This document shows positions 40,014 to 40,202 of a stretch of 64,000 bases of DNA, piece by piece (position 1 is the stretch's first letter; the number at the start of each line of letters is the position of its first letter). The notes below the pieces were generated by a model. That model saw only the letters and a program-made list of their open reading frames with translations, was not told where the DNA came from and ran no database searches. Origin of the DNA: Podarcis gaigeae (lineage: Eukaryota); NCBI GenBank assembly GCA_964106915.2, contig OZ066915.1; one strand, 5' to 3'. A program made the position numbers and the translations under genes.

Positions 40014-40202
40014 TTAGGAGGAAGTGCTAGGATCCTGGGCACTGACAGGTTTGGGGGTTGGACTTTTTACTTTGCCCTTAGCAGCTTCAAGCTGCTTGCC
40101 ATGGATGCGGTTGATGAAGGAGAAATAATCATCCATGGGTGCAATGGGAACGACTGATATATCCGAAGCGGCACCTTCTGGTAAAGCCAAGTCCTTGCTC
40201 TC
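40014..40202 (-). CDS. PCP2: Probable PCP2 terminal exon with degenerate GoLoco ([21 protein letters not shown])
   Basis: ACTGAC branch point + ttttctctttgcttcaacag acceptor, phase 0, 62 codons + TAA; ATTAAA at 39660-39655. Confidence 0.7.
   Translation of the reverse strand, partial: ESKDLALPEGAASDISVVPIAPMDDYFSFINRIHGKQLEAAKGKVKSPTPKPVSAQDPSTSS

Follow-up and report, generated by a model that had tools for sequence, protein, structure and literature searches.

In the window, a 64,000-nucleotide stretch of the genome of the lizard Podarcis gaigeae, the PCP2 gene carries a distal last exon that ends the protein in a degenerate GoLoco4 motif, a deeply conserved and apparently undescribed feature that PCP2 outside mammals carries in an alternative last exon. 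Descent of this exon from the last exon of LGN/AGS3 (GPSM2/GPSM1), which holds GoLoco3/4, is well supported by sequence comparison. We regard the exon, its frame, its homology to GoLoco4, the loss of the Gln, Arg and QR residues, and conservation from ray-finned fish to reptiles as close to certain. A literature search to which most subscription papers, the primary GoLoco structure papers among them, were closed turned up no account of a degenerate fourth GoLoco in PCP2; public gene models already include the exon.

Table 1. Features of the PCP2 locus and its convergent neighbour (positions within the window)
Feature	Position	Strand	Remarks
PET100-like gene, convergent neighbour	36473..38770	+	exons facing the PCP2 distal exon
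PCP2 distal (long) last exon, coding part	40014..40202	-	62 codons + TAA; homologous to GPSM1/GPSM2 last exon
Degenerate GoLoco4	40077..40148	-	exon residues 19-42: PxxP linker, acidic pair, amphipathic helix
Splice acceptor of distal exon	40203..40228	-	branch-like ACTGAC, pyrimidine tract, CAG
PCP2 proximal (short) last exon, probable alternative ending	48412..48566	-	AAA TGA (Lys-stop) 48561-48566; AATAAA at 48417
PCP2 GoLoco2 exon	51884..52047	-	phase 1 in, phase 0 out; Pfam GoLoco 44 bits
PCP2 GoLoco1 exon	53915..54039	-	phase 0 in, phase 1 out; Pfam GoLoco 40.7 bits
PCP2 candidate alternative first coding exon	58785..58862	-	tblastn, lacertid model, 88% over 26 aa
PCP2 candidate upstream first coding exon	63857..64000	-	tblastn 79-96%; continues beyond window

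On the minus strand, the distal exon opens at a CAG acceptor (40203/40202) with a branch-like ACTGAC ahead of it at 40228, and its frame of 62 codons closes with TAA at 40014. The intron from the GoLoco2 donor at 51884 to this acceptor measures 11,681 nt and is in phase 0 on both sides, in agreement with the 11.7 kb given in an initial annotation of the sequence, which had also rightly placed the exon tail-to-tail with PET100 (PET100-like exons at 36473-38770, plus strand). The same annotation described a strong acceptor; the ACTGAC and the pyrimidine tract are present, but the site taken by itself is ordinary, with 15 pyrimidines in 20 positions, a value matched or exceeded by 19 sites in the intron. 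Three of these 19 pyrimidine-rich sites have a branch consensus, and of the three the distal acceptor is the sole one that opens at least 60 codons. Judged from sequence, it is the encoded protein, not the acceptor, that goes beyond chance: it is 79% identical to the public PCP2 model of an alligator lizard, and the exon is 68-84% identical to that of five other lizards. Calling the exon terminal was right insofar as it is a last exon, but it is one of two, the Lys-stop exon (48561-48566) having been overlooked.

The origin of the exon can be read from its relatives in the same genome. GPSM1-like and GPSM2-like loci (C15, C33) were taken from the lizard genome by their GoLoco matches and named from motif sequence and from the LGN chain in PDB 4jhr. 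Their last three exons hold GoLoco1, then GoLoco2 with half of GoLoco3, then the rest of GoLoco3 with GoLoco4. Intron phases 0/1/0 are common to PCP2, GPSM1 and GPSM2 (boundaries predicted from splice signals, not transcripts), and the GoLoco4 exon of LGN/GPSM2 and AGS3/GPSM1 agrees with the distal exon in exon position, in phase, in helix pattern and in the distance of 54 nt between the phase-0 last acceptor and PxxP, found in all three genes of the lizard. The differences are that the PCP2 protein is without a TPR domain; that the PCP2 GoLoco2 exon lacks the first half of GoLoco3, which the matching GPSM1/2 exons carry at their end; that the distal exon starts without the second half; and that Gln has become His, the first Arg has become Gln/His and DEQR has become EAAK. 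The initial annotation had pointed to the same 18-residue run before PxxP in LGN. Its length is exact in all three lizard genes, but 2 of the 18 residues are identical and the length varies elsewhere, with 14 residues in Elgaria and a salamander and about 26 in gar.

The likeness to GoLoco4 lies in a shared helix, PxxP-x-[DE]-D-[FY]-F-S-[LF]-I-x-R, with 9/19 and 8/19 identities between the distal exon and the two lizard GoLoco4 motifs. A profile made from 34 distinct tails, GPSM sequences being left out, gave these two motifs 27.2 and 25.7 bits, the top ranks after the distal exon itself, against 9.0 bits for the best background among 89,449 20-mers and 3.8 or less for other GoLoco matches; its column range was set after the alignment had been viewed, and the background includes loci chosen for their GoLoco matches. 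The same two motifs lead with core-only, 26-column and tetrapod-only profiles. In hhalign the distal exon matches the GPSM1/GPSM2 GoLoco4 exons with a probability of 88.9% and a pairwise E of 2.4e-6, and none of 1000 shuffles reaches the alignment score. It could be argued that an unrelated tail exon came to resemble GoLoco4 by chance or convergence, as there is no Pfam or PDB match and the first 18 residues share two identities. This is extremely improbable, being contradicted by the profile ranking, the shuffles, the common intron positions and a gar protein that appears intermediate, and the GoLoco4-like motif of the initial annotation is borne out by profile, shuffles and intron phases alike.

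The gar protein, labelled GPSM1, has 175 residues and no Pfam domain besides GoLoco. It consists of three intact Pfam GoLocos, a proline-rich linker and then the degenerate motif in fourth position; its first GoLoco is nearest to PCP2 GoLoco1 (14/20 vs 11) and its second could be assigned to neither. By this arrangement it would be an intermediate stage toward that of tetrapod PCP2. The PCP2 gene would correspond to the 3' portion of a GPSM1/2-like gene, its last three coding exons, with the TPR part missing. GoLoco4 would have been disarmed before the split of ray-finned and lobe-finned fish, GoLoco3 would have been lost later, in the lobe-finned line, and the degenerate motif itself would have been lost in therian mammals. 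No similarity can be detected between the therian last exon and the distal-exon motif (hhalign 0.7%; 482 of 1000 shuffles reach the score), despite the same position and phase of the two exons in gene models. Because the motif is shared from ray-finned fish to reptiles it is not a recent erosion, and what had been described as an eroded remnant is better seen as a fixed degenerate motif.

What has been fixed is a helix with its catalytic contacts removed: His stands for Gln, the first Arg is absent and there is no QR, EAAK occupying the site of GoLoco4 DEQR as the initial annotation had noted. Counts over 36 distinct tails, collected with a relaxed motif pattern that did not require His, give His at the Gln position in 34 and Gln in two, one of them via a 3-residue deletion; the first Arg and the triad Gln are found in none (0/36 each) and the triad Arg in one (1/36). 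A Tyr in place of the GoLoco Phe is near-invariant (33/34 tails), and all tails have an N-terminal amphipathic helix with two hydrophobic pairs and a basic residue. Of the consensus in PMC8252600, the motif keeps the acidic pair, both pairs of hydrophobic residues, and the basic and small residues. AlphaFold predicts a single helix over exon residues 26-44, with pLDDT of about 80 over residues 21-40. The hydrophobic moment of the helix is 0.49, compared with 0.49 and 0.45 for the GoLoco4 motifs; over 18 residues it is 0.43 vs 0.29 and 0.28.

The Pfam GoLoco model (PF02188, threshold 25.1 bits), proposed earlier as a check on the motif, gave no match at E<=10 for the distal exon or for 22 of 22 tails, and the exon is not among the 20 Pfam GoLoco matches across the genome. 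A search of the PDB with the tail profile gave no solved structure at E<=10. One tail had a Pfam match to Ad_cyc_g-alpha (E 0.069), taken as chance, and the ESM Atlas, where recognition was low, returned phage-like clusters only (0.90 or less), which were rejected. The helix is kept but Gln, Arg and QR are gone, and on its sequence the distal-exon motif is therefore a conserved derivative of GoLoco that lies outside the family as defined. Among the gene models examined (P0131, P0132, P0137 set), those of the American alligator lack three helix residues that the Chinese alligator has, and one tortoise model has Gln where others have His; both may be real variation or assembly error.

The distribution of the motif was followed in 120 listed PCP2 homologues of 182 found, all of them gene models. 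Their endings comprise 23 with the motif directly after GoLoco2, where the distal exon is joined in frame to the GoLoco2 exon, 19 with the Lys-stop or a similar short ending, 40 with the therian tail and 38 others. Lizards, turtles, alligator, amphibians and lungfish have PCP2 models that close with the degenerate motif, and profile searches add Xenopus and other frogs, the Chinese alligator, lungfish, gar and, from cod, a protein of 14-15 GoLoco-like repeats; with the tetrapod-only profile, six held-out fish-type tails score 40-52 bits. The exon is thus conserved in other reptiles, the absence of which had been named as a ground for rejecting it. Among the matches listed, the motif is absent from the 40 therian tails; birds, monotremes and cartilaginous fish are not represented there, from which no absence in these groups follows. 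None of 24 snake PCP2 models has the distal exon, and loss in snakes is possible from these sequences. The gar "GPSM1" (P0124), a lungfish "GPSM2-like" protein (P0128) and a turtle "40S ribosomal protein S12" (P0009) are, by sequence, likely to be misnamed PCP2 orthologues. A protein labelled giant panda PCP2 (P0037) shares 78% identity with that of the lizard and is reptile-like after GoLoco2, and this label or model is suspect. In Gadus (cod), an uncharacterised protein (P0130 cluster) with 11-15 GoLoco-like repeats, many of them combining an intact triad with His at the Gln position, ends in the same degenerate motif; it is likely, from its sequence, to be an expanded teleost PCP2 relative.

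Both endings occur within one species. Pogona and axolotl models include the motif as well as the Lys-stop ending, and Xenopus has one motif isoform and one short isoform. In Pogona and Hemicordylus there are pairs of models that differ by one Gln at the junction, from which we infer transcript evidence behind the models. The Lys-stop ending with its AATAAA matches the ends of many reptile and amphibian PCP2 models. In the mouse, the short PCP2 drops the last exon (exon 3B with a stop) and binds Galpha less well, and the difference in GDI activity between short and long forms is not significant (PMC3939015, accessible part). Mammalian PCP2 (L7/GPSM4) has two GoLoco exons, as does that of the lizard. 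The lizard Lys-stop last exon parallels the mouse short form; the mouse uses a cassette exon, and the lizard has a probable alternative last exon.

Going by orthologous gene models, this lizard too is likely to splice its GoLoco2 exon either to the distal exon or to the Lys-stop exon. Conversely, the exon of the lizard lineage might be an unused relic, with all PCP2 mRNA ending at the Lys-stop exon. None of 11 lacertid PCP2 models has the distal exon (eight end at the Lys-stop, three otherwise), the window's own listed protein (P0145) ends at the Lys-stop, and no contig joint among those displayed over 18 kb links 51884 to 40202; a further 328 joints are masked by repeats. Against the relic stand the open frame and intact acceptor, the identity of 68-84% to the other lizards, and the variation among four sequencing runs, whose RNA nature is guessed, no record listing RNA: all four are free of coding indels in the distal exon, with five indels in the flanks, and 5 of 10 variable coding sites are synonymous, with a single change inside the motif, at a variable position. 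Ten sites are too few for dN/dS. In addition, contigs of two RNA-like runs, X12 and X14, from two organisms and two studies, stop at 40204, which is the acceptor plus the AG common to the upstream exon end, a weak hint of splicing. We consider the relic quite improbable.

Runs X2 and X4, from one other sample, read through the distal acceptor, and these reads may represent an antisense tail of PET100, pre-mRNA or DNA. The RNA-like contigs of run X2 are unbroken from the PET100 last exon over the PCP2 distal exon (38686-40633), and this continuity suggests a long PET100 3' end that may overlap the distal exon in antisense. On the far side, an XAB2-like gene, its name presumed, starts on the minus strand about 280 nt from the start of the PET100-like gene, and across this interval (36196-36473) the two form a head-to-head pair with a GC-rich shared promoter. 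The PET100-like name is our assignment from sequence and synteny. PET100 and PCP2 are treated together in PMC6792250, as far as its accessible text goes, consistent with this naming.

The most probable of the functional readings, to which we would give slightly less than an even chance, is that the distal-exon motif anchors Galpha-i/o without inhibiting it and that the choice of last exon switches this anchor on or off. Since the helix is kept and the Arg finger is lost, binding in the groove without inhibition is predicted. The disarmed helix (exon residues 26-44, as predicted) would dock in the groove between switch II and alpha3 of Galpha-i/o and leave GDP unlocked; the long isoform would gain an extra non-inhibitory anchor, and the Lys-stop isoform would go without. 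The motif very probably has no GDI activity. That it attaches to the switch II/alpha3 site of Galpha-i/o, and there either raises avidity or competes with Gbeta-gamma, is possible at a probability somewhat under one half. In AGS3-type motifs Arg-to-Phe changes abolish binding as well as inhibition, which counts against an anchor. It is also argued that the full motif is necessary for recognition of Galpha-GDP (PMC12329598, in part), and this counts against it as well. From the accessible parts of the literature, the switch II/alpha3 cleft takes the GoLoco N-terminal helix and the Arg finger contacts GDP (PMC12329598, PMC4660580), and the peptide R6A-1 binds the same cleft, its GDI activity being contradicted (PMC8252600).

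The near-invariant Tyr and His suggest a changed partner. The helix might now serve a new role, in contact with an unrelated partner, in membrane attachment or in self-association; the Tyr, which follows two acidic residues, could then be a switch operated by phosphorylation. The substitutions themselves (Tyr 33/34 and His 34/36 in place of GoLoco Phe and Gln), the extension of the predicted helix to residue 44 and the larger 18-residue moment all fit this. On the other side, the pattern of hydrophobic residues that faces the groove is, like the PxxP linker, still that of GoLoco4 (9/19, 8/19) and there is no family match for any other partner, and repurposing of this kind is rather unlikely in our estimate. 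As the pattern has stayed GoLoco4-like after very long separation, the same bound surface is the simplest explanation. Alternatively, the helix may have been kept for the TPR-binding job of GoLoco3/4, and would engage in trans the TPR of LGN/AGS3 or that of some other protein. In LGN, GL3-4 attach to the TPR motifs of the same protein (PMC11666239, citing Pan et al., 2013), the helix is the part kept and the nucleotide-contacting half the part lost, and the gar protein retains an intact third GoLoco beside the motif. However, PCP2 has no TPR of its own and the motif persists in tetrapods, which are without GoLoco3; we find a TPR partner unlikely, yet together with a new partner it makes a serious competitor to the Galpha anchor. 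Still less probable is that the disarmed GoLoco4 modulates Galpha with the opposite sign, releasing Gbeta-gamma or speeding exchange without an Arg finger. Were this so, non-mammalian PCP2 would toggle between a pure inhibitor and an inhibitor-plus-activator via last-exon choice, a control that would date back to early bony fish and have been given up by therian mammals. No intronless Galpha-i was found in the lizard genome.

Known systems offer partial parallels to the Galpha anchor. The partial GoLoco of Rap1GAP1a has no GDI activity reported in the accessible part of PMC12329598 and binds Galpha-o-GTP; splicing determines whether its GoLoco is full or partial, and state preference is altered (PMC12329598). 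Rap1GAP1a is a mirror image, without the start of the N-terminal helix and with the Arg finger kept, the distal-exon motif being the reverse. GBA/GEM motifs, R6A-1 and KB-752 are short and, lacking an Arg finger, still bind in the switch II/alpha3 cleft (excerpts of PMC8252600 and PMC10943482). The distal-exon sequence misses the consensus of R6A-1 and KB-752 in the available part of PMC8252600, when compared by eye, and its ancestry is different.

The arrangement implies that PCP2, a standard marker of Purkinje and bipolar cells, would be the four-GoLoco tail of an LGN/AGS3-like gene. Ray-finned fish and reptiles span about 430 million years. A short motif that is invisible to Pfam extends across them and does not occur in those mammals in which PCP2 has been investigated. 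As a natural helix-only GoLoco it may allow Galpha binding to be studied apart from GDP locking, and the choice of last exon would be a splice switch accessible in Xenopus or fish.
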